Below, in pieces: positions 37,378-58,244 of a stretch of DNA of 64,000 bases. Within the stretch, counting starts at the first letter, position 1; every line of letters starts with the position of its first letter. Under the pieces are notes generated by a model, which had not been told where the DNA came from, did not search any database, and saw nothing but the letters and a program-made list of their open reading frames with translations. The stretch comes from Blastocatellia bacterium. Lineage in GTDB: Bacteria; Acidobacteriota; Blastocatellia; UBA7656. The translations under genes and the position numbers were made by a program. The stretch lies in contig CAVXWP010000006.1 of the NCBI GenBank assembly GCA_963765495.1, positions 128,001 to 192,000 on the forward strand. Direction: 5' to 3'.

Positions 37378-38049
37378 CTACGAGGCCGCGGGCTTTCCTT
37401 CCGGTTTCGTCTCGCCTTCGGCGCGAGGTTTGTTATAATCGCAGACGATTGTGAACTGAAACATTCGCATTCCTTCCTCAGCGGCGTCCTTCTTCTCTGC
37501 GGCTTTTTCAGGGACCTCTTCGGGTTTCAAGTCTCTGCCCTCTACTGAAAGCGAAAGGTTCGTAAACAGTCCGTTTGAAAACTCAAGCTGGCGCGCGAAA
37601 TCGGCGATAACCTGCTGGCTGAGCGATGTGCCGACGATCTGCAAACTCGTGCCCTTCTGAGCTATAGAGATGAGGCGAAAATCGGCCTGCCCGCCCGGCA
37701 TGCGTTCGTTGATCGCCGATAGCATTGCCACGGGGCCTTTCTGCTCGGCGCGCAGTTGTTTTATCACCTTTATGCGCTCTTCGACCTGTTTCAACTCGGC
37801 CTCCAGCTCATCCTTGCGCTTTATGTCGGCTTCGAGCTTTGCGGCCTCGACCTGCTCGCTGTCGAGTTCTTCCTGAGCCGCCGCGTGCGCGTTATTTGTC
37901 CAGAGGTGATCTACGCCTATGGCGATCAGGAATATCACCAGCGCGCTTGCCAGCATGAAGAGTTGCTGTCCGCGTCGGGCGACCACTTTGGTCTTCTGGA
38001 TTGATACGCGTTGTTCGGCGGTGCCTTCTAGTAAATTGACCCTGATCAT
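37378..38049 (-). CDS. pilN: Type IV pilus assembly protein PilN
   Basis: MIRVNLL PilM-binding motif, TM and coiled coil. Confidence 0.88.
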   Translation of the reverse strand: MIRVNLLEGTAEQRVSIQKTKVVARRGQQLFMLASALVIFLIAIGVDHLWTNNAHAAAQEELDSEQVEAAKLEADIKRKDELEAELKQVEERIKVIKQLRAEQKGPVAMLSAINERMPGGQADFRLISIAQKGTSLQIVGTSLSQQVIADFARQLEFSNGLFTNLSLSVEGRDLKPEEVPEKAAEKKDAAEEGMRMFQFTIVCDYNKPRAEGETKPEGKPAAS

Positions 38050-39110
38050 TTCATCTCCTCCGCCACTCGAACTGCCAGCCCCACGGCCACGGCCATGTTC
38101 GGTGAAAGCTCTCTCAAATACTCTTCATCAATCCTCTTCGCGTCGAATCGAATCGAGCGGAAGGCATCGAATCGCTCTACGGGTATCTGGAAGTGATCCG
38201 ACAGATAATCGGTCAGGTGCGAGACCTTCGACGAGCCGCCCGCAATCAGCATCTTGTCTATCGAAGGCGAATCAACGGCAGTCGAGCGGAAGAAATCGAG
38301 CGTGCGTTGAATCTCGAGCCCGAGCATCTCAGAGACGGAACTGATGGCAGGCTCGGCCTGGTCAAGCATCACATCGGCTTCAAAGGTCGCGCCTCGCTTG
38401 AGTGCCTCGGCCTGCTCAAAGGTCAGATCGAGTTCCTTTTGCAGGAGGTCGGTGTACTGGTTGCCGCCCGCCGATATGTCGCGGGTGAAGATCGAAGTGG
38501 CCCCGCGCACTACGTTGATCGTCATAACGGAAGCGCCTATGTCGAGAAGGGCGACCGTCTGAGAAGGCATCGGCATATAGTTGACTTCGTACGCATTTTG
38601 CAGCGCGAAAGCGTCAACGTCGACGATGACGGGTTGTTTGCCCGCCTGCGAGATTACCTGTGTGAACTGCGCTATCTTGTCTCGCTTGCAGGCAACCAGG
38701 AGCACATCCATGCTCTGGCCGGTCTGATCGTATCCGACAATTTCGTGATAGAGGTTCACATCGTTTATGTCGAAGGGGATATACTGCTCTGCTTCCCAGT
38801 GTATCTGTTCGTCGAGTTCTTCTTCGGCCATGGCCGGCAGAGTTATCTTCTTGACTATGACTGCGTGACCGGAAAGCGAGGTGGCTACGAGATTTGTCTT
38901 TAGCCCGTGCTCGTTCCAGATGCGATTAATGCTGTCGCTGACGTGATTTAGGTCTATGATATGGCCGTCAACTATAGTGTCTGATTGCAAATTCAGATGC
39001 GCGATATGTACAAGCTCGAACCCGCCGCGTCCCGGCCTGAGTTCTACGGCCTTGAGCGCGCTCGATCCTATATCAAGCCCGACGATGCTCTTGTTCTTTT
39101 TTGCAAACAT
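38046..39110 (-). CDS. pilM: Type IV pilus assembly protein PilM
   Basis: VGLDIGSSALKAVEL, EAEQYIPF, LDIGA and AGGSS actin-like fold. Confidence 0.94.
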   Translation of the reverse strand: MFAKKNKSIVGLDIGSSALKAVELRPGRGGFELVHIAHLNLQSDTIVDGHIIDLNHVSDSINRIWNEHGLKTNLVATSLSGHAVIVKKITLPAMAEEELDEQIHWEAEQYIPFDINDVNLYHEIVGYDQTGQSMDVLLVACKRDKIAQFTQVISQAGKQPVIVDVDAFALQNAYEVNYMPMPSQTVALLDIGASVMTINVVRGATSIFTRDISAGGNQYTDLLQKELDLTFEQAEALKRGATFEADVMLDQAEPAISSVSEMLGLEIQRTLDFFRSTAVDSPSIDKMLIAGGSSKVSHLTDYLSDHFQIPVERFDAFRSIRFDAKRIDEEYLRELSPNMAVAVGLAVRVAEEMK

Positions 39111-42726: not shown

Positions 42727-43233
42727 CTAAAAAGGAGACGGATCAATCCCGCTCACCTCGCTCGCAGAAGGCACGTAGAGCACCTCGGTTCGCCCGCTCA
42801 GCCGGTTGAATATCTCAAGCGTCACTATGACCCGGTCGGGCGGCACTCCGGCTACGGGCAGTATTGTAACCACAGGGCGTATCTGCTTCCTCAACTCGGA
42901 GCGAGACAACACGTCCCTCGCTTCAAGGTCGAGCCACGCTCCATGTCCTGCCATCAATTCCACCTCCCGCGCGATTTCATTCCCTGCGCGGTCGTATAGA
43001 GGAATCCCGTCGGCGTCCACAAATCCAAGTCTCACCCTGAAAGGCACTGGCTGAATTCCTTTTACAGCATTGATGCGGGCGATCTGGCCGATTGAGATGC
43101 CGATCAGGCCGAAACGGGGCACGGGGTTAGCGGGCGGCGTGCCCTGCATGCGTGCCGATCTGGTTGAGGCGAAGAGTGCGATGAGGATTGAAATGCCTGC
43201 GAGAGCTATGAAAGTTCTCTTGCGTGTGAACAT
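42727..43233 (-). CDS. Secreted ~168-aa hypothetical protein (fibre partner 1; paralogue of 52635-53138)
   Basis: Signal peptide, predicted beta-rich; AAGGAG SD; directly downstream of fibre gene 1. Confidence 0.7.
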   Translation of the reverse strand: MFTRKRTFIALAGISILIALFASTRSARMQGTPPANPVPRFGLIGISIGQIARINAVKGIQPVPFRVRLGFVDADGIPLYDRAGNEIAREVELMAGHGAWLDLEARDVLSRSELRKQIRPVVTILPVAGVPPDRVIVTLEIFNRLSGRTEVLYVPSASEVSGIDPSPF

Positions 43234-43328
43234 AAAGCGAACTCCTTTCTTTGATTGAATGATTGATGTCGCAGCCTGCTGTGACAGGCCGTAAAACCGC
43301 CCTCTTCTCGCATCGAAGGCGGGAAGAG

Positions 43329-45089
43329 CTATTGGCGGCGAAGCTGTTCTTCAATCCGTCGCAGCCGCGCCTCCTGTTCAGCAAGCCTCTGCTTCAACCG
43401 GTCATTTTCAGCCTTCAAATCCTTGATGGCTTGCAGCATCAGAAAAGGCAGCTTGTTGTAGCGGACCACCTTAAAACCCTGCTCATCGTCGGCCACAAGA
43501 TCGGGCATCACCTTCTCTACCTCCTGAGCTACGAGGCCGAACGAGCGAGAGGAGCCAAGGTGCTGGTCGGGATACTCATCGCTTTTCCAGTAGAAGTAAA
43601 CCGGCTGTAGGCGGACAAGCGAGTCGAGCGTGAAAGGGAAGGGGGTGATGTTGCGTTTTAAGCGGATGTCTGAGGAGCAGGTGCCGGCGATGACAGTAGA
43701 GTCGCGGTCTCTGACGCAGCCTGTCGTGCCTGTGCCTACGCGAATGTTGCCTGAAACGTCGAGCCTGTCAAGGGGAGCGGTCAGGCCGATGCCTACGCGG
43801 GTATTTGCTGTAGCACCGTTGACGCCGCTGATGGAGCCGAGGACGATGCTGTCGTTTGCGGTCACAAATGCGCGGGCTCCGATGGCGGTGGCGTTTGTGA
43901 GATTTGTTGATCCGACATCTGCATCAAAGCCAATGATGGTGTTATCGCTGCCAGTTGTGTTACCCCCGCCAGCCCCCTGCCCAAAGAAGGCATTCTCATT
44001 GCCCGTGAAGTTATTAATGCCGGCAGCGCGCCCGAAGAAGGCATTCTCATTGCCCGTGAAGTTATTAATGCCGGCAGCGCGCCCGAAGAAGGCATTCTCA
44101 TTGCCCGTGAAGTTATTTCTGCCAGCAAAGCGCCCGAAGAAGGAATTATCGCGGCCTGTCGAGTTCGTGAAGCCAGCCGATTCCCCGAAGAAGGAGTTAT
44201 TGTCACCCGTCGTATTACCCGAGCCAGCCCCGACGCCGAAGAAGGAGTTGAAACCTCCCATTGTATTAATCAGCCCTGCTGCTGCCCCGAAGAATGAGTT
44301 GAAGGTACCCTCTGTATTGTGCAAGCCTGCCGACTCCCCAAAGAAGGAATTCCCCCCTCCCGTTGTGTTGGACGCTCCTGCAAGCCCTCCCGCAAAGAGG
44401 TTACTACTTCCCGCAATGCTCAACACACGGCTTCCTCCGATGTTGTACTGCGTCAAAGCATTCATCGTGTTTGCCGAAACCGTTCCCCCTGCTGTCCCGT
44501 TCCCCGATATGTTGAAGTTGCTGGCCGCCTGCTGCGCGCTCGTGTTCTGGATGTAGTTGCCGCTCCCCGAAGGCACGCTCCCCGGTGGAATCTCTCCGAC
44601 TATCTTGCTGCCTGCAACGGTGTTTATTTGCGTGTCCTGCACACACGCGACACAGCTAGGGCTGAGAGCATCGGCAGATGTGGAAGTGAGACTGCGGATA
44701 GCGTATGGAGTGGATGTGATCTGTTGGCGCGGGCTTAGAAGGGTGAAGGCCCCTGTGCTTGCCCCTGGCCTCACGCCAATCTCAAGGAAGCGGTCGGCCC
44801 CTGTGAAGACAGATGCTGAGAAGTCGAGAAGCACAGAGAAGGAGCCGTCGGTGACAGTCACATCATCGAGTGTGATGGTAGTGCCAATCTGAGAGGTGGA
44901 AGAGAGCATATCGAAGAGCTTGAACTGGAAGTCGAACAGACCATTGGCCGGAGAGCCGGAATCATCCAATCTCCCCTGGTAGGTGAAGGCGGAAGTCTGA
45001 GCCAGCGCCGGGCCCGAGGAAGCAAGCCACAGCAATGAAGTCGCAATCAAAGCAAACAAGCGCGGGCGAGAGAGAAGATTTCTTGACAC
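43329..45089 (-). CDS. Secreted fibre protein 1: AFTYQG N-domain, 17-aa N/G/F repeats, peptidase S74 chaperone
   Basis: Signal peptide (GTG 45089 after AGGAGG); NxFFGxxAG repeats; SSDIRLKRNI, GLVAQEVE and a terminal coiled coil. Confidence 0.85.
   Translation of the reverse strand: MSRNLLSRPRLFALIATSLLWLASSGPALAQTSAFTYQGRLDDSGSPANGLFDFQFKLFDMLSSTSQIGTTITLDDVTVTDGSFSVLLDFSASVFTGADRFLEIGVRPGASTGAFTLLSPRQQITSTPYAIRSLTSTSADALSPSCVACVQDTQINTVAGSKIVGEIPPGSVPSGSGNYIQNTSAQQAASNFNISGNGTAGGTVSANTMNALTQYNIGGSRVLSIAGSSNLFAGGLAGASNTTGGGNSFFGESAGLHNTEGTFNSFFGAAAGLINTMGGFNSFFGVGAGSGNTTGDNNSFFGESAGFTNSTGRDNSFFGRFAGRNNFTGNENAFFGRAAGINNFTGNENAFFGRAAGINNFTGNENAFFGQGAGGGNTTGSDNTIIGFDADVGSTNLTNATAIGARAFVTANDSIVLGSISGVNGATANTRVGIGLTAPLDRLDVSGNIRVGTGTTGCVRDRDSTVIAGTCSSDIRLKRNITPFPFTLDSLVRLQPVYFYWKSDEYPDQHLGSSRSFGLVAQEVEKVMPDLVADDEQGFKVVRYNKLPFLMLQAIKDLKAENDRLKQRLAEQEARLRRIEEQLRRQ
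43984..44117. repeat. Perfect 51-bp intragenic tandem repeat (~2.6 copies)
   Basis: Units start at 43984, 44035 and 44086; they encode NNFTGNENAFFGRAAGI. Confidence 0.9.
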
Positions 45090-45233
45090 GATAGACCTCC
45101 TGAGCGGGTAGCCGTGCAAAATAGAAACCGATCAAAGGAAGCGAGGAAGAGAGAAAACAACAAGCCACGGCACGGGATCGAATTCAGTGCGTCGGATACG
45201 GCAAGAGGTTAGCTCGAAATGCGCTCCGTTTAC

Positions 45234-45249
45234 AGAGCATATTTATGCG
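45234..45249 (-). promoter_or_regulatory. Palindromic operator upstream of fibre gene 1
   Basis: AGAGCATATTTATGCG; 14/16 identical to 46079-46094. Confidence 0.65.
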
Positions 45250-45370
45250 TTTTTTTGAAAGTAAAATGAGACGCGGAGACACGGAGACACGGAGACACGG
45301 AGACGCGGCCAAAGAGAGGTCGTGCGTCCAACTACCCCCCGGCCCCCGGCCCCTGCCCCCCGGCCCCCGC

Positions 45371-46030
45371 CTAGATGAGCCCGCTTCGGATGGCTTTGCT
45401 TACGGCCTCAGACTTGGAATGGACGTGGAGTTTTTCATAGACGGTGCGGATGTAGTTGCGCACCGTGTTGACGCTTATCTTCATCTGGCCCGCCGCGCCC
45501 TGATAGCTAAAGCCATCGGCCAGCAGTTTGAGCAATCGCACTTCCTGCGCCGTCAGGTGCTCGTCTATCTTTTTGTGCGGACCTATGCTCTGAAAGAGCC
45601 GGACGACTTTTCTGGCTATCTCAGGCGACATCGGGGCGCCGCCATCATAGACCTCTCTTATATATTCGAGCAGGCGGGCGGGCGGAGTCTTCTTCAATAG
45701 ATAGCCGCTCGCCCCGTTGCATATAGACTCGAAGACCCTGTCCTGTTCGTCGTAAACCGTGAGCATCAGGACTTGCATGTCGCGAAACTTCTCTTTGAAG
45801 ACCGCGACGCCGTCAGACCCCTGTATACCGGGCAGGTGAATGTCCAGCAACAGCACGTCGGGCAGGTCGAACTTAATCAGCCGCAGGGCCTCTTCGACCG
45901 AGCTAAAAGTGCGGACGCAACGATAACCGGCCGTTGCATTTATCAAGACGGCCAGCCCCTCGCGCAGCGAACGGTCATCCTCGACTATCCCAACGCTGAT
46001 CGTTTTATCATCGACCTTCACCTGAATCAC
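45371..46030 (-). CDS. NarL/LuxR family response regulator
   Basis: VEDD, LLDIHLPG, GASGYLLK and HTH ISVNTVRNYIRTVYEKLHVHSK. Confidence 0.93.
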   Translation of the reverse strand: MIQVKVDDKTISVGIVEDDRSLREGLAVLINATAGYRCVRTFSSVEEALRLIKFDLPDVLLLDIHLPGIQGSDGVAVFKEKFRDMQVLMLTVYDEQDRVFESICNGASGYLLKKTPPARLLEYIREVYDGGAPMSPEIARKVVRLFQSIGPHKKIDEHLTAQEVRLLKLLADGFSYQGAAGQMKISVNTVRNYIRTVYEKLHVHSKSEAVSKAIRSGLI

Positions 46031-46078
46031 CGCTCCCCTCCCGGCCCCCGATACTATAGCGCGACGCGCCTGCTCACA

Positions 46079-46094
46079 AGAGCATAGATATGCG
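46079..46094 (-). promoter_or_regulatory. Palindromic operator upstream of the response regulator (autoregulation)
   Basis: AGAGCATAGATATGCG, with TATAGT -10 about 21 bp downstream on the minus strand. Confidence 0.65.
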
Positions 46095-46110
46095 CCCCTT
46101 TGCGCGATTG

Positions 46111-49100
46111 CTATGGAAATCTCCTGAGCGGGAAGGTGAATCTGATATGCGTCCCTCGTCCGGGCGCTGACGAGATGTCAATATCTCCGCCGATTTCAGC
46201 CGCCCGCTTCCGCATATTTACGAGTCCGTTTCCTCCGAGAGAGGTTGTGGAAAGCGCTTCCGCATCGAACCCACACCCGTCATCGCTTATCTCTGCCATC
46301 AATCGATGATCCATAATCGCAAGGCTTAGCCGAGCCAGATTGCACCCCGAATGACGAGCTACATTGTTGAGGGCTTCCTTGAGGATCAGAAACAGGTGAC
46401 GGCGCACTTCGGGGGCAAGCTTTATGTTTTCCAGACCGGGCGGCAGGTTTAGCTCCCATTCTATTTGCTTCGCTTCGAGCACATCCGAGGCGAAGCGCCT
46501 TACTCTTTGCGCAACGTCTTTGAGGCTGTCCTTGCGAGGGTCTATCGACCACACGATGTCGCTCATCGAATCGACAAGGCCGCGAGCCGAGTCGGCGACC
46601 TCCGTAAGCGTACCGGCTATCTCTTTGCGCCCGGGTTCGATCTGTTGTTTTGCGACTTCGCTGAGTATGGCTATCCTCGAAAGGCTTGCTCCTATGTCGT
46701 CGTGCAGGTCTGTGGCTATGCGCGTGCGCACACGTTCGAGTTCGAGCAGCCGTGCTACCCTGTAGCGTTCAAATAGAAATATGAGCAACCCTGCAAACAT
46801 CGCAACAATCGCAATAAACCACCACCGCTGCCATACAGGGCTGAGGATTGTGAAAGAGATCTGTGCGGGCGCGGGGCTTCGGGTGCCGTCTGAAGTTATA
46901 GCCTCTACGAGAAAGCGATACCTGCCCGGCGACAGGCGCAGGTTTACGGTTCGCTGAGGGGTGGGCGCGCTCCAGTCGCGGTCAAGCCCTTCGATTTTGT
47001 AGCGATATGTGAGCGCCCCGCCAGAAGCAAAACTCAGACCGAAGAAGTCTATCTGTATTTGATTTCGGTTCGAGTCCAATTCCGGGCCTTCGACAAGGCT
47101 TTCGCCAAAGACGGAGAGCGGATAGTCGACTCCGGCGATCTGCAACCGGCTTATAAAGACGGGCGGCGGCGTTGTAAGCCGTTCAGGTCCGGGTGTGATT
47201 CGTGAGAGTCCATGAAATGTGCCGAACCACACACGACCCTGATGGTCCCCAAAAACGGAATATAGGGTTTCTGCCGAGAGGCCATCGGCAATCGTGTAGT
47301 GGATGATCCGGCCCGTTTTCGGGTCGAAGCGATCTACGCCGTTTATGGTGTCGACGTAAATGCGCCCCTGAAGATCTTCGGTCAATTTCCCGACTATATT
47401 GCTCGATAGGCCATCCTGCGTTCGATACGTTTTGAAATCCGGTCGCTCCGCTTCTGGCTCATTCACGCGGCACAATCCGCCACGTCCGCTTGTGACCGAA
47501 ACCCAGAGCCTGCCTGAGCGGTCGAGGTGTATAGCCCTGACCTCTCCGTCTGGAAGGCCGTCTCTTGAGGTAAAGATCGTGAAGCGCCCTTCGCGGTAGC
47601 GCGCCATTCCGCTATCGCGAAACCCTATCCAGAGGCTTCCACCAGAGTCCTCGCAAAGGGCTGTGACCGTATTGAGCGTAGGCAGTCCATCACGGTCGGA
47701 GTAGCGATGGAAGCGCCCTGTCGCCCGCTCCCACCGCGTCAGCACTCCGCGCCCGGGAGCGAATGTAGCTATCCAGATATCACCCCGCGAGTCCTCAAAC
47801 AACTGCGTTACATCATTGCCCGCCAGACCGTCGCGCGTTGTAAAGACCGCAAGCGGGCGGGCGCTTGCGAGTTCTTCGAATCTGTTGACTTTCGGAAAGC
47901 GATATAGCCCTTCACGGGTCGCCACCCACCACTCTCCCTTATGGTCCTTTATCACTCCGTGATTGGGGGCGAAGTCGGCATCATTGATGTGTCCGGGCAG
48001 GTTGAACCGTACAGATGTAATCCTCTCTCCAACGAGGCGGTGTAATCGCCACCCCGCGCCCAAAAAGTAGAGATGCCCGGTATGGTCTTCGAATATATTG
48101 GTAATCATATTCGCTTCCAGCCCGTCGGTTTCCGTATAAGTGATGAATCCGCTTCTGATTATTTTGACGACCCCTTTGTGTAAAATGGCTATCCATATGT
48201 TTCCGTTTACGTCCTCGGCAAGTCCTCCGGCAATCTCCCCGACCTCTGGCGCTATGGTGTATGTGCGAAACCTGCGGCCGTCGAACTCTATCAGTCCCTT
48301 CTTCCTGCTGGTCATGTATATTCGCCCGTCTGAGAACTGGCTTACGGTCTTCGCGCTGCTATTTGCGTCACTGGTTATTGAAAGCCACACGGCCTCGCCC
48401 CGTTCTGCGGGCAAGCCGACATCGGGTTGATGGGGATCATAGATCGCGTCGCTTTCAACAAGACTGCGCCAGAGGGTGTGGTCCGTCAGCCCGGCTTCTG
48501 CGGTCTGTAAGGGGTTGACCACGAGCAATCCCGCTTCGTGATCGACCCACAACCGCTCCTGCCCGTCTATCAGGAGCGAGTAGACCACATCCGTTCCTTT
48601 CGATGTCGGCCTGACCCTGTAGTGAAGCATGCGGGCGTCACCTGAGCGCCGCACAAGCCCATACTTCGTCCCTATCCACAGGCTGCCTTCGGCGTCTTCG
48701 ATAATCGTCCACACCTGAACAAGCGAGTCGGGGTGCGAGGGAAAGCCTAGCCCGACTGCGAGGAAGAAAGCGCCCGGGCCTCTATCGCTCAGCACAAACA
48801 GGCCGCCATCGGTCCCGGCCCATATCCGCCCGCTGCGGTCTTCATATAAAACGTTTACGCGGTTGCCTGCCCCTGTATCCCCGATCCTGTAGACGGTAAA
48901 GAGTTTCCCGGCTTTATCCTGCAATTGACCGGGGGGATAGGGTTTGCCTGTGGGAGAGTAATTGAATCGGCAGACGCCTGAGCCGTTGGTTGCGGTCCAG
49001 TAATTGCCGTCGCGGGTTTCGAGGAAATCGTTAAAGATAGGAAATGCCAATCCCTCATCCAGCCCGAGGGTGAAGAAATTCTGGCCGTCAAACCGGCTCA

Positions 49101-49323
49101 ACCCGTTGGAGGTGCAGAACCACAAAAACCCCAGCGAATCACAAACTATGCGATTGACGCGGTTGTGCGCCAGCCCTTCGTTTGCGGTGTAATGGCGTAT
49201 GGGTAACCGCTCGGCGAGCGAGATCTGCGGGACCGCAGCAAACAAACAAATCAGCAAAAGCGCGCAGGATAGTGTAATACAGCTGCGGAAAAGGCTATTT
49301 CTCTCTGGTCTTGTAGAACTCAT
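46111..49323 (-). CDS. Sensor histidine kinase: Reg_prop beta-propellers, Y_Y_Y, TM, HisKA_3, HATPase
   Basis: Repeated D..G.(L/I)W.GT motifs, YRYKIEG, PVWQRWWF, RIATDLHDDIGA and DDGCGF. Confidence 0.93.
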   Translation of the reverse strand: MSSTRPERNSLFRSCITLSCALLLICLFAAVPQISLAERLPIRHYTANEGLAHNRVNRIVCDSLGFLWFCTSNGLSRFDGQNFFTLGLDEGLAFPIFNDFLETRDGNYWTATNGSGVCRFNYSPTGKPYPPGQLQDKAGKLFTVYRIGDTGAGNRVNVLYEDRSGRIWAGTDGGLFVLSDRGPGAFFLAVGLGFPSHPDSLVQVWTIIEDAEGSLWIGTKYGLVRRSGDARMLHYRVRPTSKGTDVVYSLLIDGQERLWVDHEAGLLVVNPLQTAEAGLTDHTLWRSLVESDAIYDPHQPDVGLPAERGEAVWLSITSDANSSAKTVSQFSDGRIYMTSRKKGLIEFDGRRFRTYTIAPEVGEIAGGLAEDVNGNIWIAILHKGVVKIIRSGFITYTETDGLEANMITNIFEDHTGHLYFLGAGWRLHRLVGERITSVRFNLPGHINDADFAPNHGVIKDHKGEWWVATREGLYRFPKVNRFEELASARPLAVFTTRDGLAGNDVTQLFEDSRGDIWIATFAPGRGVLTRWERATGRFHRYSDRDGLPTLNTVTALCEDSGGSLWIGFRDSGMARYREGRFTIFTSRDGLPDGEVRAIHLDRSGRLWVSVTSGRGGLCRVNEPEAERPDFKTYRTQDGLSSNIVGKLTEDLQGRIYVDTINGVDRFDPKTGRIIHYTIADGLSAETLYSVFGDHQGRVWFGTFHGLSRITPGPERLTTPPPVFISRLQIAGVDYPLSVFGESLVEGPELDSNRNQIQIDFFGLSFASGGALTYRYKIEGLDRDWSAPTPQRTVNLRLSPGRYRFLVEAITSDGTRSPAPAQISFTILSPVWQRWWFIAIVAMFAGLLIFLFERYRVARLLELERVRTRIATDLHDDIGASLSRIAILSEVAKQQIEPGRKEIAGTLTEVADSARGLVDSMSDIVWSIDPRKDSLKDVAQRVRRFASDVLEAKQIEWELNLPPGLENIKLAPEVRRHLFLILKEALNNVARHSGCNLARLSLAIMDHRLMAEISDDGCGFDAEALSTTSLGGNGLVNMRKRAAEIGGDIDISSAPGRGTHIRFTFPLRRFP

Positions 49324-49589
49324 AGACCCTGTAGGAAGAGATGAAGCAATATCTTTACAGATTTATCAGGGGCATTCAAATCTAAGGGAAATTCTTCGCC
49401 TACCTGCATACTGAACGCATGCGCGGGCCTGCGCCTCTCTCAAAGACCGAAAGCCGCTAATATCGCGGAGCTTTTTCATAAGGCAAAGACTCTCTTTCTA
49501 CTATCTCGGCATCGCGCCGATTGACCTGCGTCCCAGGTTTGCCATAATATAGCCCACTCACCAATTCTTCTTAAGAAGGGTATAACGCG

Positions 49590-49868
49590 ATGGCAGAAGC
49601 CGACACGCTCGACATCAAATCGAGAGAGATACAAGCCCCGACAAAACAGACCGGCCAGTATCGCCCGCTGCTAGCCGGACAGACCGTCTGCACCGTCAAG
49701 GATGAAAAGGGCAACAATTGCGCGGGCCACGTCAAGCAATGGCTGACGGCCCCGGCGGAGGTCGAAGCGCAGGCCGCCGACGGAAACACCATTCACCGCT
49801 GCCAGCGGTGCTACACGATTTATGAGGGACCGCCTCAACAGTATCTGCACCCGAGCGTCAAGAAATGA
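49590..49868 (+). CDS. Small putative metal-binding protein
   Basis: 92 aa with C-x9-C..H and HRCQRC; AAGGG SD; TTGACC/CATAAT-like promoter at ~49521-49548. Confidence 0.55.
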   Translation: MAEADTLDIKSREIQAPTKQTGQYRPLLAGQTVCTVKDEKGNNCAGHVKQWLTAPAEVEAQAADGNTIHRCQRCYTIYEGPPQQYLHPSVKK

Positions 49869-49903
49869 CCCGGCATCTGTGCAGAGAAAGCAGGACACCC
49901 GTA

Positions 49904-50923
49904 ATGAAAATCAAAGTAAATCTGTTGATGGCGACCGCCTTTATCACGGCGCTTTTGATTCCAGCCATCCGGGCTTATTCGCAGGAACCGACCGCAAAGA
50001 AGGTCGCGGGTAATCGAAAGGAGGCAAGGTCTGTCATGCTCAAAGACGACTATAAGGATGTAAACGGCGTGCGGCTCCATTACGTCACGGCAGGTGACGG
50101 AAAGCTCATAATGTTTGTTCACGGCTTTCCAGAATTCTGGTACGAGTGGAAAAACCAGTTGAATGAATTTGGGCGCGACTACCTGGCGGTAGCCCCGGAT
50201 ATGCGTGGGTACAATCTGTCGTCAAAACCCGAAGGCGTAGACCAGTATCAGGTCAAATACCTGATCGAGGATTTGCGGGCGCTGGCCGAATCTCTCGGCC
50301 ACAAGAAATTCATCCTCGTAGCCCACGACTGGGGCGGAGCAATCGCGTGGGGCTTTGCGATTGCTCACCCTGAATACCTTGAAAAACTCATAATCATCAA
50401 CGCGCCGCACCCGGCGATCTTTCAGCGCGAGATACGCGACAACCCTGCGCAACAAAAAGCGAGCCAGTACATGCTGATGTTTCGCAGCGCGCAGGCCGAG
50501 CAGATCCTTTCGGCCAACAACTATGCCGCGCTTGTCGGGGCCGTGCTCGGCGAAGGCTTGAAACAGGGGCACTTCACCGAAGAGGACCGCAAGGCATACA
50601 TCGAAGCGTGGTCTCAGCCGGGCGCGCTCACAGGCGGTTTGAATTATTACCGCGCCGCGCGCATCGGCCCTCCGACGACTGATGAGGAAAAGCAAGGGCC
50701 GGGTTTTGCCGGGCCGCTACAATCATTTGAAGTAAAGGTACCCACGCTTGTCATCTGGGGCGAGAAGGACACGGCGCTGCTTACGGGCAACCTCGAAGGG
50801 CTCGATAAATACGTCCCCGATCTGACGATAAAACGCATCCCCGACGGCACACACTGGGTCGTACACGAAAAGCCCGAGCTTGTGAACTCTTACATAAGGG
50901 AATTCATTGAGGGTAAGCGATAA
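49904..50923 (+). CDS. Alpha/beta hydrolase (epoxide hydrolase-like) with signal peptide
   Basis: HGFPE, DMRGYN, AHDWGG nucleophile, LNYYRA and GTHW. Confidence 0.9.
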   Translation: MKIKVNLLMATAFITALLIPAIRAYSQEPTAKKVAGNRKEARSVMLKDDYKDVNGVRLHYVTAGDGKLIMFVHGFPEFWYEWKNQLNEFGRDYLAVAPDMRGYNLSSKPEGVDQYQVKYLIEDLRALAESLGHKKFILVAHDWGGAIAWGFAIAHPEYLEKLIIINAPHPAIFQREIRDNPAQQKASQYMLMFRSAQAEQILSANNYAALVGAVLGEGLKQGHFTEEDRKAYIEAWSQPGALTGGLNYYRAARIGPPTTDEEKQGPGFAGPLQSFEVKVPTLVIWGEKDTALLTGNLEGLDKYVPDLTIKRIPDGTHWVVHEKPELVNSYIREFIEGKR

Positions 50924-52577
50924 GGCCCGCCGTGTGATTCGTGATTGAAGGCTGGTTGAGAATCGCCTCCCTGCACATATCTGCGTCCGGGTGATCAGAG
51001 CAGACGATCTTCTTCAGGTTGAAGATGAGAAGCTGTTGTTGCTCGATCCGGGCCTGCTGCTGATTGATGGCATTGATGAGCGCGACCGTGATGCGGTCGT
51101 ACTTGACCCCCTCGATTTCGCCTTTATCGTTGTGAGTCACAAGCAGCGGCTCAACTCGCGCTACATCTTCTGCCGCAAGACCGAGGTCGCGCGTTCCATC
51201 CTGTTTCCACGTAAAGCTAATTGGTCGCAATAGCCTGATGATCTCTAATCCGCCCGGGAAAGGCTGCACTTCGGTCTTGTAGCGCAGGCTTGATGAGCAG
51301 GTGGAAATTTGATTCGAGGAATTGCGACATAGTGAAGTGCTGCCCGCCGCGCCGAGACCCGGAATCACCACGACATCGGAAGTAGTGCCAAGCACGATTG
51401 TGTTTGAGGTTGATACCCTCGCGCCGTAGCCGATGGCGGTCGAGTGGTTTACGCCTGAGAGGCTGACTACCGTATTTGAGCCGAGCAGGGTGTTTTGGTT
51501 CCCGATAGCGTTGAGTGGGCCAAAGCCCGTCCTCGCGCCGATAAACGTGTTTGATGAACCCGTCGAGCCGTTGCCGCCAGCCTGAATTCCAAAGAAGGAG
51601 TTGTCAGTGCCTGTCGTATTGCCCAGACCTGCGTCTTCTCCGAAGAAAGAGTTGCAGCAGCCCGTCGTGTTTGTAGCGCCTACGTGCCATCCGAAGAAGG
51701 CGTTGCCTCCGCCCGTTGTGTTGGCATTTCCGGCCTCCCATCCGAAGAAGGAGTTGAGAGCGCCTGACGTATTACTTGTGCCCGAATCCTTTCCGAAGAA
51801 GGCATTCTCAGTTCCGGTCGTGAGGCTCGCGCCCGCGCCGAGTCCGGCGAACAGATTCCCCGTACCCGGCGCGGCGAGCACCCGACTGCCTCCGATGTCG
51901 TACTGCGTCTGCGCGTTGACGATACCGGGCGAGAGTGAGCCGCCTACGCTGAGATTGCCGCCGATTGTCCCGTTGCCTGAGATGTTGAAATTGGTTGCGG
52001 CTTGCTGGCTGGTGCTGTTCTGTATGTAATTCGCGCTGCCCGAGGTCGGCGGCCTTGCATCCGATAGCCGGGCATCGGTCGTCACAACGTACTGGCTTGC
52101 CGCAATTCCTCCTAGCTGTGCCGCATTCGCCGCATTCGCCGCATTCGTCGCCGTGTCTGCCGATGTGGCAATCGTGCTCCGCACGGCGTAAGGCGCAGAC
52201 GACAAAGGCTGGCGAGGTGAAAGTACAGTAAATGCGTCAGGGCTGCCCGCTGGCCGTACACCTATCTCAAGAAATCGCGGGGCACCGCTAAACACACTTG
52301 CTCCGAAATCAAGCTGAACGGTGAATGCGCCGTTTGTCACCTGCACCGCAAGGCTGGTGATCGTAGCTCCAACCTGGTTGCCTGTGACAAAGTCCGTTGA
52401 GTCGAACAGCTTGAACTGCATATCGTAGCTGCCGTTTGCGGGGGTGCCTGAGTTAGTCAGACTGCCCTGATAGGCGAATGCCGCGCCTTGCGCAAACGCC
52501 GAGCGGGACGCGAGAAAACATATGAGCGTCAGTAACGATAGGATTGAAGTGCAGCGCTTGAACGATATTTTCAACAT
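50904..52577 (-). CDS. Secreted fibre protein 2: AFAYQG N-domain, N/G/F repeats, peptidase S74 chaperone
   Basis: Signal peptide; paralogous to 43329-45089 (RFLEIGVRP, LSPRQ, NYIQN, NFNISGNGT); SSSLRYK and GLAAEDV. Confidence 0.85.
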   Translation of the reverse strand: MLKISFKRCTSILSLLTLICFLASRSAFAQGAAFAYQGSLTNSGTPANGSYDMQFKLFDSTDFVTGNQVGATITSLAVQVTNGAFTVQLDFGASVFSGAPRFLEIGVRPAGSPDAFTVLSPRQPLSSAPYAVRSTIATSADTATNAANAANAAQLGGIAASQYVVTTDARLSDARPPTSGSANYIQNSTSQQAATNFNISGNGTIGGNLSVGGSLSPGIVNAQTQYDIGGSRVLAAPGTGNLFAGLGAGASLTTGTENAFFGKDSGTSNTSGALNSFFGWEAGNANTTGGGNAFFGWHVGATNTTGCCNSFFGEDAGLGNTTGTDNSFFGIQAGGNGSTGSSNTFIGARTGFGPLNAIGNQNTLLGSNTVVSLSGVNHSTAIGYGARVSTSNTIVLGTTSDVVVIPGLGAAGSTSLCRNSSNQISTCSSSLRYKTEVQPFPGGLEIIRLLRPISFTWKQDGTRDLGLAAEDVARVEPLLVTHNDKGEIEGVKYDRITVALINAINQQQARIEQQQLLIFNLKKIVCSDHPDADMCREAILNQPSITNHTAGLIAYPQ

Positions 52578-52634
52578 CGCCGGTATCTCCTCGAAAGCTT
52601 CGAACCATTTGTCCGGGTCTGTGCGATAGATCGG

Positions 52635-53138
52635 CTAGCCGACTAATATCCCGATGATTGAGATAACTACGTAAAGGATTTGGCCGGTAGCATCGGCCAA
52701 CACCTCGCTTGTAATCCACAGACTTCGCAAGTCTTCCCGCCTGACGGCCAACTCCGTGCGCAGCAGCATGCTGCGCTCTCTGCCGCCTAACTGGTTGCGG
52801 CTGACTTCGAAAGAACACATATGATCCGGTTCAAGGATCAGCGGCTCTTCGGCCTGTTTCACTATCGTCCCGTCGGCACCAACAAAACTGGGCTGCACAC
52901 TGATCCTGCGCGTGCCAACATTAGTCAGCGTCGTGCGCAGGCTCTGGCCGAAGACAAGGCTCGTAGAGCCTAACGGGAGGCTGATTCCCTGTCTTTCGTC
53001 GCCACTTGCTGCTTCGACCACCGAAGCTACCGAGGCAGCGACGAGTGATGCTCCGGCAACTTTCAGGAAGCTCCTTCTGTTGTCCGTTTGTACCTTTGTT
53101 GATCCGTTCTGATTGAGGTCAATACTGCTGATTTTCAT
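52635..53138 (-). CDS. Tat-exported ~167-aa hypothetical protein (fibre partner 2)
   Basis: NRRSFLK twin-arginine signal; similar to 42727-43233; directly upstream of fibre gene 2. Confidence 0.72.
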   Translation of the reverse strand: MKISSIDLNQNGSTKVQTDNRRSFLKVAGASLVAASVASVVEAASGDERQGISLPLGSTSLVFGQSLRTTLTNVGTRRISVQPSFVGADGTIVKQAEEPLILEPDHMCSFEVSRNQLGGRERSMLLRTELAVRREDLRSLWITSEVLADATGQILYVVISIIGILVG

Positions 53139-53190
53139 AACAAATTCCTTCCTTTCTTTGAATTGATGATCACTCGCTTGCTACAACTCA

Positions 53191-53222
53191 TAAGGCGGGA
53201 ATCAGATGAGAAAGTGCTAACA
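53191..53222 (-). promoter_or_regulatory. Putative ECF-sigma promoter of the partner2-fibre2 operon
   Basis: TGTTAGCACTTTCTCATCTGATTCCCGCCTTA; 27/32 identical to 53946-53977. Confidence 0.7.
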
Positions 53223-53343
53223 GATTTGCGAAGGATCGGCTTTCGGGAATTCTCGATTCTGCGGTTGTATCTTTAGGCAGATGCAACACTGGATAGTAGA
53301 AAACAGATATGCTATTCTGGGTGCCCTCACAGAAGGGGGAACG

Positions 53344-53928
53344 GTGACCGCACCCTCGCAGAGAGAGATCACGGAACTGCTTGTGGCCTGGGGCAACGGA
53401 GACCAGGCTGCGCTGGAAAAGCTTACCCCGCTGGTTTACTCTGAACTCCATCGTCTGGCCCGCCACTACATGAAAGGAGAGCGTCCCGGCCATACGCTCC
53501 AAACCTCTGCGCTGGTCAACGAGGCTTACTTACGATTAATAGATTGGAAGAGTGCGCGCTGGCAGAACCGTGCGCACTTCTTTGCCGTCTCGGCTCAGCT
53601 TATGCGCCGTATCCTTGTGGATTTCGCCCGCTCTCGCGATTACGCCAAAAGGGGTGGTGGGGCGCGTAAGGTTTCGCTTGATGAAGCTACGGTAATATCG
53701 GGCGAGCGAGGCGCTGATCTTGTGGCTCTCGACGATGCTCTCAATGCTCTTGCGCGGCTTAACGCGAGACAGAGCCAGGTTGTGGAACTCCGGTTCTTTG
53801 GCGGGCTGAGCCTTGAAGAGATCGCCGAGGTGCTCAAGGTATCTGTCGGCACAGTCAGGCGCGATTGGAGCCTGGCCCGCGCGTGGCTCTTCAGACAATT
53901 GAGCATGAATCAGGAGAGCAGCGAGTGA
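53344..53928 (+). CDS. ECF sigma factor of the Ser/Thr-kinase-associated (TIGR02999-like) type
   Basis: ITELLVAW, VYSELHRLA, HTLQTSALVNEAYLRL, MRRILVDFAR and RDWSLARAWL; GTG start after AGGGGG. Confidence 0.92.
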   Translation: MTAPSQREITELLVAWGNGDQAALEKLTPLVYSELHRLARHYMKGERPGHTLQTSALVNEAYLRLIDWKSARWQNRAHFFAVSAQLMRRILVDFARSRDYAKRGGGARKVSLDEATVISGERGADLVALDDALNALARLNARQSQVVELRFFGGLSLEEIAEVLKVSVGTVRRDWSLARAWLFRQLSMNQESSE

Positions 53929-53945
53929 AAAAAATCTTTTTTCGT

Positions 53946-53977
53946 TGTTAGCAGTTTCGCGCCTGATTCGCGCCTTA
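53946..53977 (+). promoter_or_regulatory. Putative ECF-sigma promoter of the kinase-AAA operon
   Basis: TGTTAGCAGTTTCGCGCCTGATTCGCGCCTTA. Confidence 0.7.
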
Positions 53978-54061
53978 CCCGATGAGGTATGCTATCGGGC
54001 CGCAGACGCCCGGTCTGTTCGCTTAACTTGACTGATAAGCCATCGCCAGATGGACCTTTAT

Positions 54062-56322
54062 ATGACACCTGATCGCTATCGACAAATAGGTGATATTTAT
54101 CTCGCCGCGCTGGAAGTCGCCCTCCCTCGCCGCGCGGCCTTTCTTGAGGAAATCTGCGCCGGAGATGATGAGCTTCGCAAAGAAGTGGAATCGCTGTTGG
54201 CTTCCGACGTTGAGGCAGGAGATTTTATTTCCTCTTCCGCGCTCGAACTCATAGCCGGGGAACTGGCAAAAGAGCAGGAGACAATGCTTGCGGGCAAGAG
54301 ATTCAGCCATTACCTTATCGATTCGCTGATTGGCGCGGGTGGAATGGCGGAGGTCTATCTTGCCGAAGATGTAAGGCTTCCGCGCAAAGTGGCGCTGAAA
54401 CTGCTCCCCGCTGCCTTCACTCGGGATGACGACCGCGCGCGCCGCTTCGAGCAGGAGGCTCGCACCGTTTCCGCGCTCAACCATCCGAATATAGTCACGA
54501 TCTACGAGATAGGTCGTTTCAACGGGCGGCAATATATCGCCTCCGAACTTGTAGAAGGCCGTACATTGCGCGACCAGATGGCAGCCGGAATGACGCTCCG
54601 GGAATCGCTCGACGTAGCGATTCAGGTGGCAAGCGCGTTGGCGGCGGCGCACAGGGCGGGCATCTTTCACCGCGACATAAAGCCGGAAAACATAATGTTA
54701 CGCCTCGACGGTTACGTTAAGGTTCTCGACTTCGGCCTGGCCAAACTGGCCGATGGGCGGCAGCAAGCGGGCGGCGATCAAGGGGGGGACAGGAGCCGGA
54801 TGCGAAGAGGGTCAGCACCGCCGCCGGCATGGTTTTGGGCACGGCAGGGTATATGTCGCCCGAATAGGCGCGCGGGCAGAAGGTAGACGGACGCACGGAC
54901 ATTTTCAGCCTCGGGGTCGTGATGTATGAAATGATCTCCGGGCGTTCTCCGTTTGTCGCCCCCACGCTGGCCGATACCATCGTTTCGATCCTCTCAAAAG
55001 AGGTGGCTCCGCTTTCGGCACCCGACATCCCCGCCGCGCTCGGGCGGATAGTCGGAAAGGCGCTCGTAAAATCTCGCGAAGATCGCTACCAGACAAGCGA
55101 GGAGTTGCTGATTGATCTGAAGAAGCTCAATCTGGAGCTTGAGCTTATTTCGAAGATGAGAGGCGGCGACCCGGCTCGTCTTCGCTCCGATGTTGATCGG
55201 ATTGAAACCGGGAGATTCACCGAAAGATTTACAACGCCGCTCGATGAGGATGATACCCCCGCTCACTGGCCCACACCCACTTCGGCCTCGACCACTTTGA
55301 CACAGATGCTTGAGCCGGTCGGCGGCGCGGTACCGCTCGATTCCGGTTTTTACATCCTCCGACCCACCGACGAGAAGTTTCGCACAGCCATCGCGCGACA
55401 GGACAGCATCGTGCTGGTCAAGGGTGCGCGGCAGGTTGGAAAGACCTCGTTGCTTGCGCGCGGTCTGCAACAGGCCCGCAAGTCGGGAGCAAGGGTAGTG
55501 CTGACGGATTTGCAAAACATCTCGGCGGATTCGCTCTCGTCTGTAGAAAAGCTTCTTTTTACTTTTGCCGACTGCTTTGCCGATCAACTCGATCTCGACC
55601 TTGCGCCCTCCGACATATGGAAATCCAGTCGCAGCCCCGTGACAAATTTCGAGCAATACCTTCGGCGCGGGGCTCTGCTCAAGGTGATGGACCCGATTGT
55701 CTGGGGACTCGATGAAGTTGACCGCCTATTTACCTGCGCCTTTGGGAGCGAAGTATTCGGGCTGTTTAGGTCCTGGCATAACAAGAGAGCTTTAGACCCC
55801 GAGGGACCATGGCGCAGACTCACGCTTGCAATCGCCTACGCGACCGAGGCGCATCTGTTTATAACCGATCTCAATCAATCGCCCTTCAATGTAGGCACAC
55901 GGCTCCTGCTTGAGGATTTCTCATTCGAGCAGGTGGATGAACTCAATACCCGTTACGGGTCGCCCTTAAAAGAGAGGGCCGAGGTGGCGCGTTACTTTCG
56001 CCTTCTGAGCGGGCATCCATACCTCGTGCGGCGAGGGTTTTACGAGATGGTTTCCAACAGCCTCGACCTGACGGGGCTGGAAGCCCGGGCCGATCACGAC
56101 GAGGGGCCGTTTGGCGATCACCTTCGCCGCATGCTGTTTTCGCTCTCGCAGGACAGCGAGTTGTTTGAAGTCGTGCGCGGCCTGCTCGGAGGAAAGCCCT
56201 GCCCCACGCCCGAGAGCTTCTACCGCTTGAGAAGCGCGGGGCTTGTCCTCGGAGATTTTGCGCGAGATGCGAGACTGCGCTGCCAGTTGTACGCGACTTA
56301 CTTCGAGAGGCACATGCTATGA
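54062..56322 (+). pseudogene. Disrupted Hanks Ser/Thr kinase fused to an AAA_35-like P-loop ATPase
   Basis: Frame 1 carries [20 protein letters not shown] and DFG. After G7 (54782-54788) the kinase continues in another frame as [16 protein letters not shown](54865)[16 protein letters not shown]. The C-terminal part has GARQVGKT (Walker A) and LDEVD (Walker B). Confidence 0.82.
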
Positions 56323-58244
56323 ACGCGATTGAGATGCGTTATGACAGCCCCTTCTATGTTACGGGCGGGACGCTTGCGCGAGACGCTCTCTGCTATGTCA
56401 CGCGCCAGGCCGACCGTCTCGTTTATGAGAGCCTGCATAAGGGCCGCTTCTGTTACGTGCTGACAGCGCGCCAGATGGGTAAGTCTTCGCTTATGGTGCG
56501 GGCGGCCTCGCGTCTGCGCGATGAAGATGTAGGTGTAGCGGTGCTCGATCTTACGGCTATAGGCCAGAACCTCACGGCCGAGCAGTGGTATGGAGGGCTG
56601 CTCACACAGATGGCCCAGCATCTCAATCTCGAAGACGAACTCGAAGAGTTTTGGGATGACCACACGGCGCTTGGTCCGCTCCATCGCTGGATGCAGGCGG
56701 TGCGTTCCGTAGTGCTGCTGCATTATACGGGCCGGGTTGTGATCTTTATAGACGAGATAGATGCCGTGCGCAGTCTGCCTTTTCCCACAGACGAGTTCTT
56801 TGCTGGCATAAGAGAGTTTTACAATCACCGGGTCGAAGACCCTAAGCTTGAGCGATTGAGCCTCTGTCTGCTCGGGGTCGCCGCGCCGTCGGATCTGATC
56901 AAAGATACACGGATGACTCCGTTCAACATCGGGCAGAGGATCGAACTGCGCGACTTTACAGAAGCGGAGGCGCAGGTGCTGGCCAGCGGGCTGGGAAGAG
57001 ATGAGCAGCAAGAGGCGGTCTTGCTCAAAAGGATACTCTACTGGACGGGCGGGCACCCCTACCTGACGCAGAGGTTGTGCCAGGCGGTGGCCGAAGAGGG
57101 CGGGTCGGGCAGCGTCGAAGAAGTGGATCGTTTGTGCGGAGAGCTTTTTTTTGCGCGTCGGGCACAGGAGCAGGACGACAACCTGCTCTTTGTAAGAGAG
57201 CGAATACTCAGAAGCGAGATAGACCTGAGCGGGCTGCTCGGCCTCTACGGGCAGGTGCTCAGGGGAAAGAGGATCGAGGAGGACGAGACCAACCCGTTTG
57301 TCACGATTCTGAAATTATCGGGGATTACGCGCGCCGAAGATGGGCGGCTGCGGGTGAGGAATCGAATCTACAAGCGGGTATTCGATAAAGCGTGGGTCGC
57401 CGCGAACATGCCTGATGCCGAGATGAGGCGTCAGCGAGCCGCATACAGAAAAGGTCTGTTTCGGGCCGCGGCTATAGCTACGGTGATCCTGCTTGCGATG
57501 GCCAGTCTCGCTTCTGTTGCCGTCCGGCAACGCAATTTTGCAAGGGCGGCGGAAGAGGCGAATCGCTGGCAACTCTACGCCGCGCATATGAACCTGGCGG
57601 CGCGCGACTGGCAGGACTCTAACATCGAGCACATGCGCGAGCTTTTAGATCTGCAAGTGGCGGAGCCGGGGCACGCCGACCTCCGCGGGTTTGACTGGTA
57701 CCTCCTCTGGGCTTTAGCTCACCCCGAAAGCGAAACGAAACGTGTCGAGAGAAATTTCTGGGGGATCACGTTTTCGCCGGACCTGAAGTGGTTTGCCGAG
57801 GACGATAGAACGGTGGTCCAGATTCGGAACCTGGCTACCGGCAGCCAATTGAACTCTTTCAACTCCGATGGGCTGCAAGGCATGGCGGTGTTCTCGCCCG
57901 ATGGAAAACTCCTGGCAGCCGACAGCCTCGACCACTCAATAAGGCTCCGGGAGATCTCGACTGGGCGGGAGCTTCAACGACTGAAGGGCCACACAGACCT
58001 TGTCTTGGATCTGGCTTTTTCGGCTGACGGCAAAACACTGGCATCCGCCAGCAAAGATCGCACAGCCCGTGTATGGGAAGTGGCGACAGGGAGATTGCTC
58101 GTGACGCTCAAGGGTCACACGGGTCCCGTCAAGTCCGTGGCCTTTTCGCCTGACGGCAATACCCTGATCTCTGCGGCCCGTGACGGGCAATTGATCATCT
58201 GGCGCGCCGCTACCGAGCAGGAGGTAGAATCTCGCGATAGGTGA
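56319..58244 (+). CDS. AAA_35-like ATPase, TM, short WD40 array
   Basis: [33 protein letters not shown] and about four FS(P/A)DG WD40 repeats; ATGA overlap with the upstream gene. Confidence 0.88.

Follow-up and report, generated by a model that had tools for sequence, protein, structure and literature searches.

The 64,000-nt window analysed here (contig CAVXWP010000006.1 of a Blastocatellia bacterium, assembly GCA_963765495.1, positions 128,001 to 192,000) contained two gene cassettes for secreted fibres, both on the minus strand. In the list of open reading frames (ORFs), each cassette comprised a gene for a fibre ending in a Peptidase_S74 (S74) domain and an adjoining gene for an exported protein of ~167 aa (designated the partner). 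As shown in Table 1, the fibre gene preceded the partner gene in cassette 1 and followed it in cassette 2, the two genes being 95 and 57 nt apart, respectively. Scans with Pfam and NCBIfam detected a Reg_prop/Y_Y_Y/HisKA_3 kinase and a Response_reg-GerE regulator upstream of cassette 1 on the same strand; partner 2 was divergent from a TIGR02999 sigma factor followed by Pkinase, AAA_35 and AAA_35-WD40 domains. An earlier reading of this DNA, made without database searches (the sequence-only reading), had described these genes, their order and their neighbours, and the ORF list and the scans bore it out. The region was bordered by SecA at one end and by a gamma-glutamyltranspeptidase at the other. 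The comparisons below indicated that the window held two copies of a module recurring in Pyrinomonadaceae-like Acidobacteria, consisting of an envelope sensor with its regulator, an exported beta-sandwich protein and secreted fibres.

Table 1. Genes and sequence elements of the two cassettes (window coordinates; TM, transmembrane; ECF, extracytoplasmic function).
Feature	Position	Strand	Description
Partner 1	42727..43233	-	168 aa, exported, Sec-type signal peptide, beta-sandwich; unnamed family
Fibre 1	43329..45089	-	signal peptide, N-domain (~residues 40-205), 17-aa repeats, S74 with SDIRLK
Block AAACGCATAAATATGCTCTG	45233..45252	-	inverted repeat GCATA..TATGC upstream of fibre 1; candidate regulator site or promoter part
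8-nt tandem repeat GTCTCCGT	45267..45304	-	four and a half copies, between regulator gene and fibre 1
NarL-type response regulator	45371..46030	-	Response_reg + GerE (Pfam)
Histidine kinase	46111..49323	-	signal/TM, periplasmic Reg_prop + Y_Y_Y, TM, HisKA_3, HATPase_c; TM 14-32 and 834-852
Alpha/beta hydrolase	49865..50923	+	convergent with fibre 2; neighbour only, link to cassette putative
Fibre 2	50904..52577	-	architecture as fibre 1; S74 motif SSLRYK
Partner 2	52635..53138	-	167 aa, homologue of partner 1; twin-arginine signal NRRSFLK; hydrophobic C-terminal tail 146-164
ECF-type bipartite motif, copy 1	53191..53222	-	TGTTAGCA.TTTC....CTGATTC.CGCCTTA, facing partner 2
ECF sigma factor	53281..53928	+	TIGR02999, 227.7 bits against a cut-off of 126.15; QTSA at residues 74-77, region 2.2
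ECF-type motif, copy 2	53946..53977	+	18 nt after sigma gene, facing kinase gene
Ser/Thr kinase fused to AAA_35	54050..56322	+	split in the assembly into 54050-54886 and 54919-56322
AAA_35-TM-WD40 propeller protein	56319..58244	+	TM segment 384-402 between the two parts

Fibres 1 and 2 (fibre lengths 557–586 aa) aligned over 555 columns at 43% identity (E 3e-116) and scored 46.5 and 30.0 bits, respectively, against Peptidase_S74 (PF13884; Pfam cut-off 22). Reading of the sequences and pairwise alignment gave both an N-terminal signal peptide and a common N-domain, followed by N/G/F-rich repeats of the form NxFFGxxAGxxNTTGxx, the 17-residue unit of which corresponded to a 51-nt period in the DNA. 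The two paralogous signal-peptide S74 fibres with a common N-domain and repeats that the sequence-only reading had proposed were thus confirmed. In the Ser...Lys motif of S74, Ser and Lys were kept in both proteins and the Asp of fibre 1 was replaced by Ser in fibre 2. Near-invariant columns were concentrated in the N-domain and in S74. The N-domain was common to 2589 proteins, named mostly from Acidobacteria. The ORF of fibre 1 extended to a TTG at 45119; the GTG at 45089 was preferred as its start because AGGAGG lay 7 nt upstream, and the 586-aa form was present in a public protein collection. Five fibre paralogues, accounting for all five S74 matches, were found in the source genome. The cassette had been called duplicated: this was correct for the two copies in the window and understated the size of the fibre family in the genome.

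PHROG tail-fibre families matched the fibres only from about residue 150–180 onwards (shaft and S74), and the N-domain had no phage match among the PHROGs. Against the PDB, fibre 1 was matched by sequence in its S74 part only, the sole meaningful match being 6f45 (E 4.8e-5), a phage long tail fibre distal subunit. The fibres might accordingly be prophage leftovers, set beside the other genes by coincidence or local duplication, with no functional unit involved. They resembled phage S74 tailspikes and tail fibres (endosialidase type, PF13884) in an S74 domain above the cut-off and in PHROG matches to the beta-helical shaft, and one of the three other paralogues adjoined an integrase. Unlike phage tail fibres, however, they lacked a virion context, carried a Sec signal peptide and a bacterial N-domain, and lay under cellular sensor genes. 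No phage genes flanked either cassette among the neighbours scanned with Pfam (SecA, the two-component system, the hydrolase and the sigma/kinase genes). The partners had no PHROG match, and no close relative of partner 1 was found in viral contigs. In addition, the layout was repeated in several genera at 35–86% protein identity, and a motif pair in cassette 2 was unique in the genome (see below). These comparative data already contradict a prophage origin of this kind, which we regard as highly improbable.

Partners 1 and 2 were only weakly similar by BLASTP (E 0.008, 28% identity over 72 residues). A profile-profile comparison gave a probability of 76.8% (E 2.1e-5), three ORFs from other genomes were matched by both partners, and a joint alignment of 32 sequences was coherent over the whole mature domain, with conserved motifs G-x-x-G-Q, D-x-D-G and P-G and an end of the form T-L-E-V...G-x-T. 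AlphaFold2 models (pLDDT 79.8 for partner 1 and 75.7 for partner 2, cores above 90) had eight strands in the same order. When structures were searched exhaustively, 1nc7_A was the best PDB match of both (Z 7.6 and 8.8), and most of the next matches were also in common. Because of the profile match, the shared ORFs, the joint alignment and the common strand order and best PDB match, we concluded that the two partners were distant homologues with one beta-sandwich fold; the structural similarity on which the sequence-only reading depended was therefore present. A more specific fold assignment was considered and dropped: a Foldseek search of the partner against the PDB gave no match at E ≤ 1e-3, and Z scores of 7.6 and 8.8 lie in a range rated as common by the search tool. 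As the structure is a generic beta-sandwich by these measures, no function can be read from the fold.

When 1.84 billion representatives were searched with a family profile, 3043 proteins passed E ≤ 1e-3 and 1682 passed E ≤ 1e-10; the family thus has at least 3043 cluster representatives. The domain occurred in one, two or four tandem copies. Neither partner had a Pfam match at E ≤ 0.01, or an NCBIfam match. Among the 32 family members, Pfam hits at E ≤ 1 were limited to TAT_signal (six, weak), Mfa_like_2 (four, weak) and DUF4232 (two, weak). The source names of relatives were all "hypothetical protein", save one protein named for its fused WD40-like repeats, and 10 family representatives looked up by cluster were all hypothetical or unnamed. 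Six other proteins were close relatives of partner 1 and nine of partner 2. The twin-arginine motif and the hydrophobic C-terminal tail of partner 2 recurred in its close relatives; this tail, part of which formed the last strand of the model, may be a membrane anchor. Partner 1 had one further paralogue in the source genome, on another contig, which adjoined a beta-propeller gene and was divergent from a TPR-CHAT gene, with no fibre beside it. No paralogue of partner 2 was found there.

Two details of the partner leaders were also seen. Both (43243-43263 and 53150-53170) contained an A-rich stretch ending in AAAGAAAGGA right before the start codon. Upstream of this stretch, a hairpin GGCCTGTC..ACAGGC was common to partner 1 and its relative in L054 (~1540-1590), the proteins being only 53% identical.

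The kinase and regulator of cassette 1 had the domains (Pfam) and TM segments of a NarL-type two-component system with a Reg_prop sensor. Relatives of the response regulator, 50–86% identical, lay upstream of partner genes in eight loci. Upstream of fibre 1, the AAACGCATAAATATGCTCTG block was a single site in the window; it was kept at the equivalent position of the orthologous locus L080, and was weaker in L071. A motif common to the regions upstream of fibre 1 and of the kinase was sought and rejected, as only low-complexity 12-mers with two mismatches were obtained. The sequence-only reading had each cassette sharing a cis-motif with its own regulator locus; for cassette 1 none was found, and for cassette 2 a two-site motif was. 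A simple scan for promoters and terminators gave fewer sites than in shuffled sequence. Between the regulator gene and fibre 1 there were, besides the tandem repeats GTCTCCGT, two G-rich 17-mers (CTRCCCCCCGGCCCCCG, plus strand) at 45332-45369; neither the repeats nor the 17-mers were conserved in L080.

The 32-nt motif of cassette 2 occurred at two sites in the window, against none expected (100 shuffles), and no third site was found in the 7.3-Mb genome with up to six substitutions. Since it occurred only before partner 2 and before the kinase gene, it tied cassette 2 to its own sigma factor. The GTTAGC and CGCC parts were 18 nt apart, a spacing that we read as probable ECF promoter geometry. 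A CGCCT(T/A) box in similar context was present in eight of 10 sigma-cargo intergenic regions of other loci, as judged by eye and without an estimate of chance occurrence. The pairing of sigma factor and kinase was repeated in six related loci. In relatives, kinase-TM-TPR or kinase-TM-PD40 proteins stood in place of kinase-AAA_35. No anti-sigma domain was found among the scanned neighbours of the sigma factor.

In the assembly, a frameshift interrupted the kinase gene close to seven consecutive G (54782-54788), and the Gln codon of its SPEQ motif was replaced by TAG (54865-54867). A 155-nt contig from a public soil metagenome (run X1) carried an extra G behind 54781 and C for T at 54865, and thus neither lesion. 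This evidence is one contig at a depth of 3.7; because two independent frame-restoring differences are unlikely to be noise, an intact kinase-AAA_35 gene exists in the sample of run X1. The lesions in the assembly may be assembly errors or a strain variant. The idea of a broken kinase and a dead cassette 2 was therefore dropped, and the single kinase-AAA gene described previously is probably correct. PADLOC assigned no family to either fibre or either partner, and the kinase matched generic kinase models only.

The contexts of 25 partner loci outside the window were then compared; the near-duplicate L059 and the truncated locus L057 were left out, and the loci were mapped with the window's proteins and a family HMM after wider context had been obtained. 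A signalling gene adjoined the partner in 22 of them. In nine loci an ECF sigma factor of the window type lay no more than 3 kb away, mostly in divergent orientation and with a Ser/Thr kinase behind it; eight had a kinase and regulator, likewise of the window type, upstream on the same strand. The partner was divergent from a TPR-CHAT gene in four loci and adjoined a wHTH-TM-TPR protein in one; four two-domain partners, seen with 1.5-kb flanks only, also adjoined such a protein. The three loci without a regulator were all on short contigs or near contig ends. As the source genome had only nine TIGR02999 sigma factors and six Y_Y_Y kinases in 7.3 Mb, chance adjacency of partner and regulator is not a serious option. 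The two sensory systems of the sequence-only reading were thus both present in the window, and the family as a whole adjoined at least four sensor types.

S74 fibres were found within 3 kb of the partner in seven of the 25 loci, always on the same strand and in arrays of one to five. In the closest relative (L080 and L053), a kinase, a regulator (86% identical) and five fibres were followed by partner 1. In L065, with the layout of cassette 2, an ECF gene was divergent from the partner, which was followed by four fibres. The partner and fibre genes were therefore co-located elsewhere, as the earlier description had called for, and both orders, fibre first and partner first, occurred among the related loci. 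These results supported a non-phage, regulator-linked cassette: relatives of the partner lay beside the same kinds of regulator and the same fibres in other genomes. Within the order, partner-1 relatives were present in 15 of 58 genomes and S74 matches in 30 (131 in total, up to 32 in one). Fibres appeared to be a favoured cargo, since S74 matches occurred in 13 of the 15 partner-positive genomes, against 17 of the 43 partner-negative ones. The genome with 32 S74 matches (G047), a number exceeding the 21 MAT (mosaic adhesive trimer) genes reported for Bdellovibrio, had twelve of them on contig C13, which holds L080 and L053, in two arrays.

The sequence-only reading treated fibre and partner as one unit, and the partner could be a dedicated structural component of the fibre, i.e. 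an anchor, adaptor or assembly factor holding the N-domain at the envelope, with the regulators acting only as switches. Both window fibres adjoin a partner at a short distance, the fibres near partners always share their strand, and seven of the nine genomes with five or more S74 matches are partner-positive; moreover, the invariant N-domain of the MAT fibres of Bdellovibrio presumably binds a still unidentified surface element, according to the MAT paper (PMC10769870). However, 18 of the 25 partner loci had no S74 fibre within 3 kb, three of the five fibres in the source genome had no small exported neighbour of the partner family, and among the loci examined only ~20 of the 131 S74 matches of the order lay in partner-linked clusters. 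Two genomes that are 96 and 98% complete (G019 and G044) were partner-positive and had no S74 match, and a single partner may stand beside up to five different fibres. A complex prediction of the fibre N-domain (residues 40-165) with the partner (36-160) returned no answer (score 0.00) and is evidence for neither side. Because most fibres had no partner, and many partners no fibre, a partner dedicated to the fibre is disfavoured, and the proposed unit was not supported. A structural role of this kind thus seems improbable; the partner was tied to the signalling gene, not to the fibre.

We therefore favour, at a probability of roughly 0.58, a reading in which the cassettes are sensor-controlled operons for secreted trimeric fibres and the small protein is an accessory of the sensor. 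A cue from outside or from the envelope would be detected by the Reg_prop/Y_Y_Y histidine kinase with its NarL-type regulator in cassette 1, and by the ECF43-like sigma factor with the Ser/Thr kinase-AAA_35 and AAA_35-TM-WD40 proteins in cassette 2, and the regulator would switch on the adjacent partner-fibre operon. In cassette 2, the bipartite ECF-type promoter predicted before partner 2 and before the kinase would also provide positive feedback. The fibres would leave the cytoplasm via Sec; the C-terminal S74 domain would assist in their trimerisation and then release itself by self-cleavage, and their variable distal part would be borne on a constant N-terminal domain, like that of the Bdellovibrio MAT adhesin fibres. 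Gene content, homology, the recurring layout and the two-site motif are observed; regulation and inducible expression, the secretion route, trimerisation and cleavage, surface display, an adhesin role and the role of the partner are predicted. The partner would act on the sensor side, as an extracytoplasmic co-sensor or feedback element induced with the operon; this assignment is the least certain part of the interpretation. The kinases, the wHTH proteins and the AAA_35-WD40 protein had a TM segment followed by TPR, PD40 or WD40 domains, so that an exported partner could meet them.

Several observations weigh against this interpretation. The TPR-CHAT neighbours were mostly without a TM segment, which fits poorly with an extracytoplasmic co-sensor. 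The ectodomains of the sensors varied (propeller, TPR, PD40, WD40) with a constant partner fold, which disfavours one common mode of binding, and the fold itself, a generic beta-sandwich, has no clear counterpart in the PDB. The partner census started from partner matches in genomes that are kin, and its loci are not independent. In a sample of 301 genomes of the phylum the partner was matched in only six, three of them from the family of the source genome, so the module may be narrow. As for regulation, the window scan found no motif common to the regions upstream of fibre 1 and of the kinase, and motif copy 2 was specific to the source genome, the short sigma-kinase gaps of six relatives having no copy.

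The partner may instead be the most conserved regulated cargo, a secreted or membrane-tethered lectin- or adhesin-like beta-sandwich with an outward function of its own, which takes no part in signalling and does not bind the fibre. Its structural neighbours included carbohydrate-binding modules, a fimbrial lectin domain, GOLD domains and TNF/C1q-like heads, and the family occurs in one, two or four tandem copies, a habit common among binding modules. It also occupies the usual place of first-line members of ECF and two-component regulons, with the ECF-type motif directly before partner 2. These structural matches were weak (Z below 9, none by Foldseek at E ≤ 1e-3), and a cargo protein would not be expected beside four unrelated kinds of signalling gene while all the other cargo varies. 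We consider this alternative unlikely, and retain the sensor accessory as the preferred role.

The nearest known analogues of the fibres are the MAT fibres, S74 subgroup, of Bdellovibrio bacteriovorus. As described in the MAT paper (PMC10769870), the signal peptide of these proteins leads directly into an invariant N-domain of ~130 aa that is rich in beta structure; a long trimeric beta-helical shaft comes next, and the C-terminus is an autoproteolytic S74 chaperone with SDxxxK. There are 13 S74-type and eight other MAT copies per genome. The window fibres were likewise chromosomal, non-phage and multi-copy, and had a MAT-like layout of signal peptide, conserved N-domain, shaft and S74, the two N-domains being compared by description only. 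The 17-aa repeats and the tail-fibre PHROG matches are compatible with the beta-helical shaft of MAT, although the trimer is a prediction here. The distal part of MAT varies on a constant N-domain, and we take the window fibres to be alike in this. They were shorter (557–586 against ~1000 aa), and their host, an Acidobacterium, is to our knowledge not known as a predator, unlike Bdellovibrio. In the parts of the MAT main text seen, no linked regulator or small partner gene is mentioned and the word "operon" is absent (PMC10769870).

ECF43-type sigma factors are associated with, and activated by, Hanks kinases (EcfP/PknT and EcfK/PknS; PMC13147305, PMC7826278), and the Thr of an uncharged QTTA motif is phosphorylated by the adjoining Hanks kinase (PMC13147305). 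The window sigma factor likewise adjoined a Ser/Thr kinase, had no anti-sigma factor in view and carried QTSA where the group has QTTA; the likeness is one of motif and kinase pairing. Unlike the ECF43 partner kinases described there, which have a TM receptor domain, the window kinase was fused to AAA_35. Reported ECF43 targets are genes for type VI secretion or polymyxin resistance, whereas the target proposed here would be the partner-fibre operon.

Small periplasmic accessories encoded beside their own sensor are exemplified by CpxP with CpxRA and ToxS with ToxR. By analogy, the partner may be comparable to these, being a small exported protein encoded beside, and often divergent from, signalling genes that probably induce it. 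It differs in having no sequence or fold relation to CpxP or ToxS, and its family lies beside four signalling architectures. In the literature searched, which covered few subscription papers, neither the module nor the partner family nor S74 fibres of Acidobacteria were described. The statement that no system with this layout had been described thus stands as far as these searches reach, with MAT as an analogue of the fibre itself.

Non-phage S74 fibres have so far had one studied example, in a bacterial predator; the same building plan was common in this abundant, poorly studied soil lineage, with likely switches attached. The sigma factor with its two-site motif, and the response regulator with its conserved upstream block, offer handles on when the fibres are made. 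The partner family has at least 3043 clusters, no name and no Pfam model, and lies habitually beside signalling genes; if the partner is a co-sensor or feedback element, it would represent a new accessory class in bacterial envelope signalling. A bolder proposal is that the family is a new exported signalling accessory taken up by four unrelated sensor architectures (histidine kinase/NarL, ECF sigma/Hanks kinase, wHTH-TM-TPR and TPR-CHAT) and gating, in soil Acidobacteria, expandable MAT-like fibre arsenals (up to 32 S74 genes in one genome) as a recognition or attack system. This is speculative and we hold it to be doubtful; if true, it would extend a type of cell-cell recognition or attack so far known only from the predator Bdellovibrio.

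Other genes were seen repeatedly near the partner loci. A Gly-rich second fibre-like family occurred near the partner in six loci (e.g. L055:4224-5807, L071:8676-10385, L075:8647-10215 and L073:8681-9484). Its members were secreted, with an N-terminal part containing ITKW...VGIGT, Gly-rich repeats and a C-terminal domain containing FKIDHPLDP...YLYH, and had no Pfam or PHROG match. An exported 340-aa family, 76–88% identical across genomes, had Cys-rich CGDGVCE...CPGDCPP repeats at the C-terminus (L067:8686-9705, L069:6706-7770, L070:6719-7744 and L072:8638-9657), and lay between regulator and partner in three kinase-regulator loci. Further recurrent genes near partner loci encoded peptidases (C25, M23) and hydrolase-like proteins. 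In two genomes the fibre arrays were followed by large proteins of the Peptidase_C25 (gingipain) type that contained Ig and BACON domains (L067:209-3484 and L073:1922-5362), and in L065 and L066 unrelated hydrolase-like genes separated the partner from the fibres. L078:7696-8424, flanked by a TPR-CHAT gene and four fibres, encoded a protein with the twin-arginine signal and hydrophobic tail (IIGILIGLLLP) of the partner-2 family; its middle part did not match the family profile.

In the window, a 92-aa ORF with two CxxC-like pairs (49590-49868) was divergent from the histidine kinase gene and overlapped the start of the alpha/beta hydrolase gene by 4 nt. A PilM type IV pilus assembly gene (38046-39110) was situated ~3.6 kb past partner 1, with SecA in between; according to the MAT paper, fibres and type IV pili may interact (PMC10769870).

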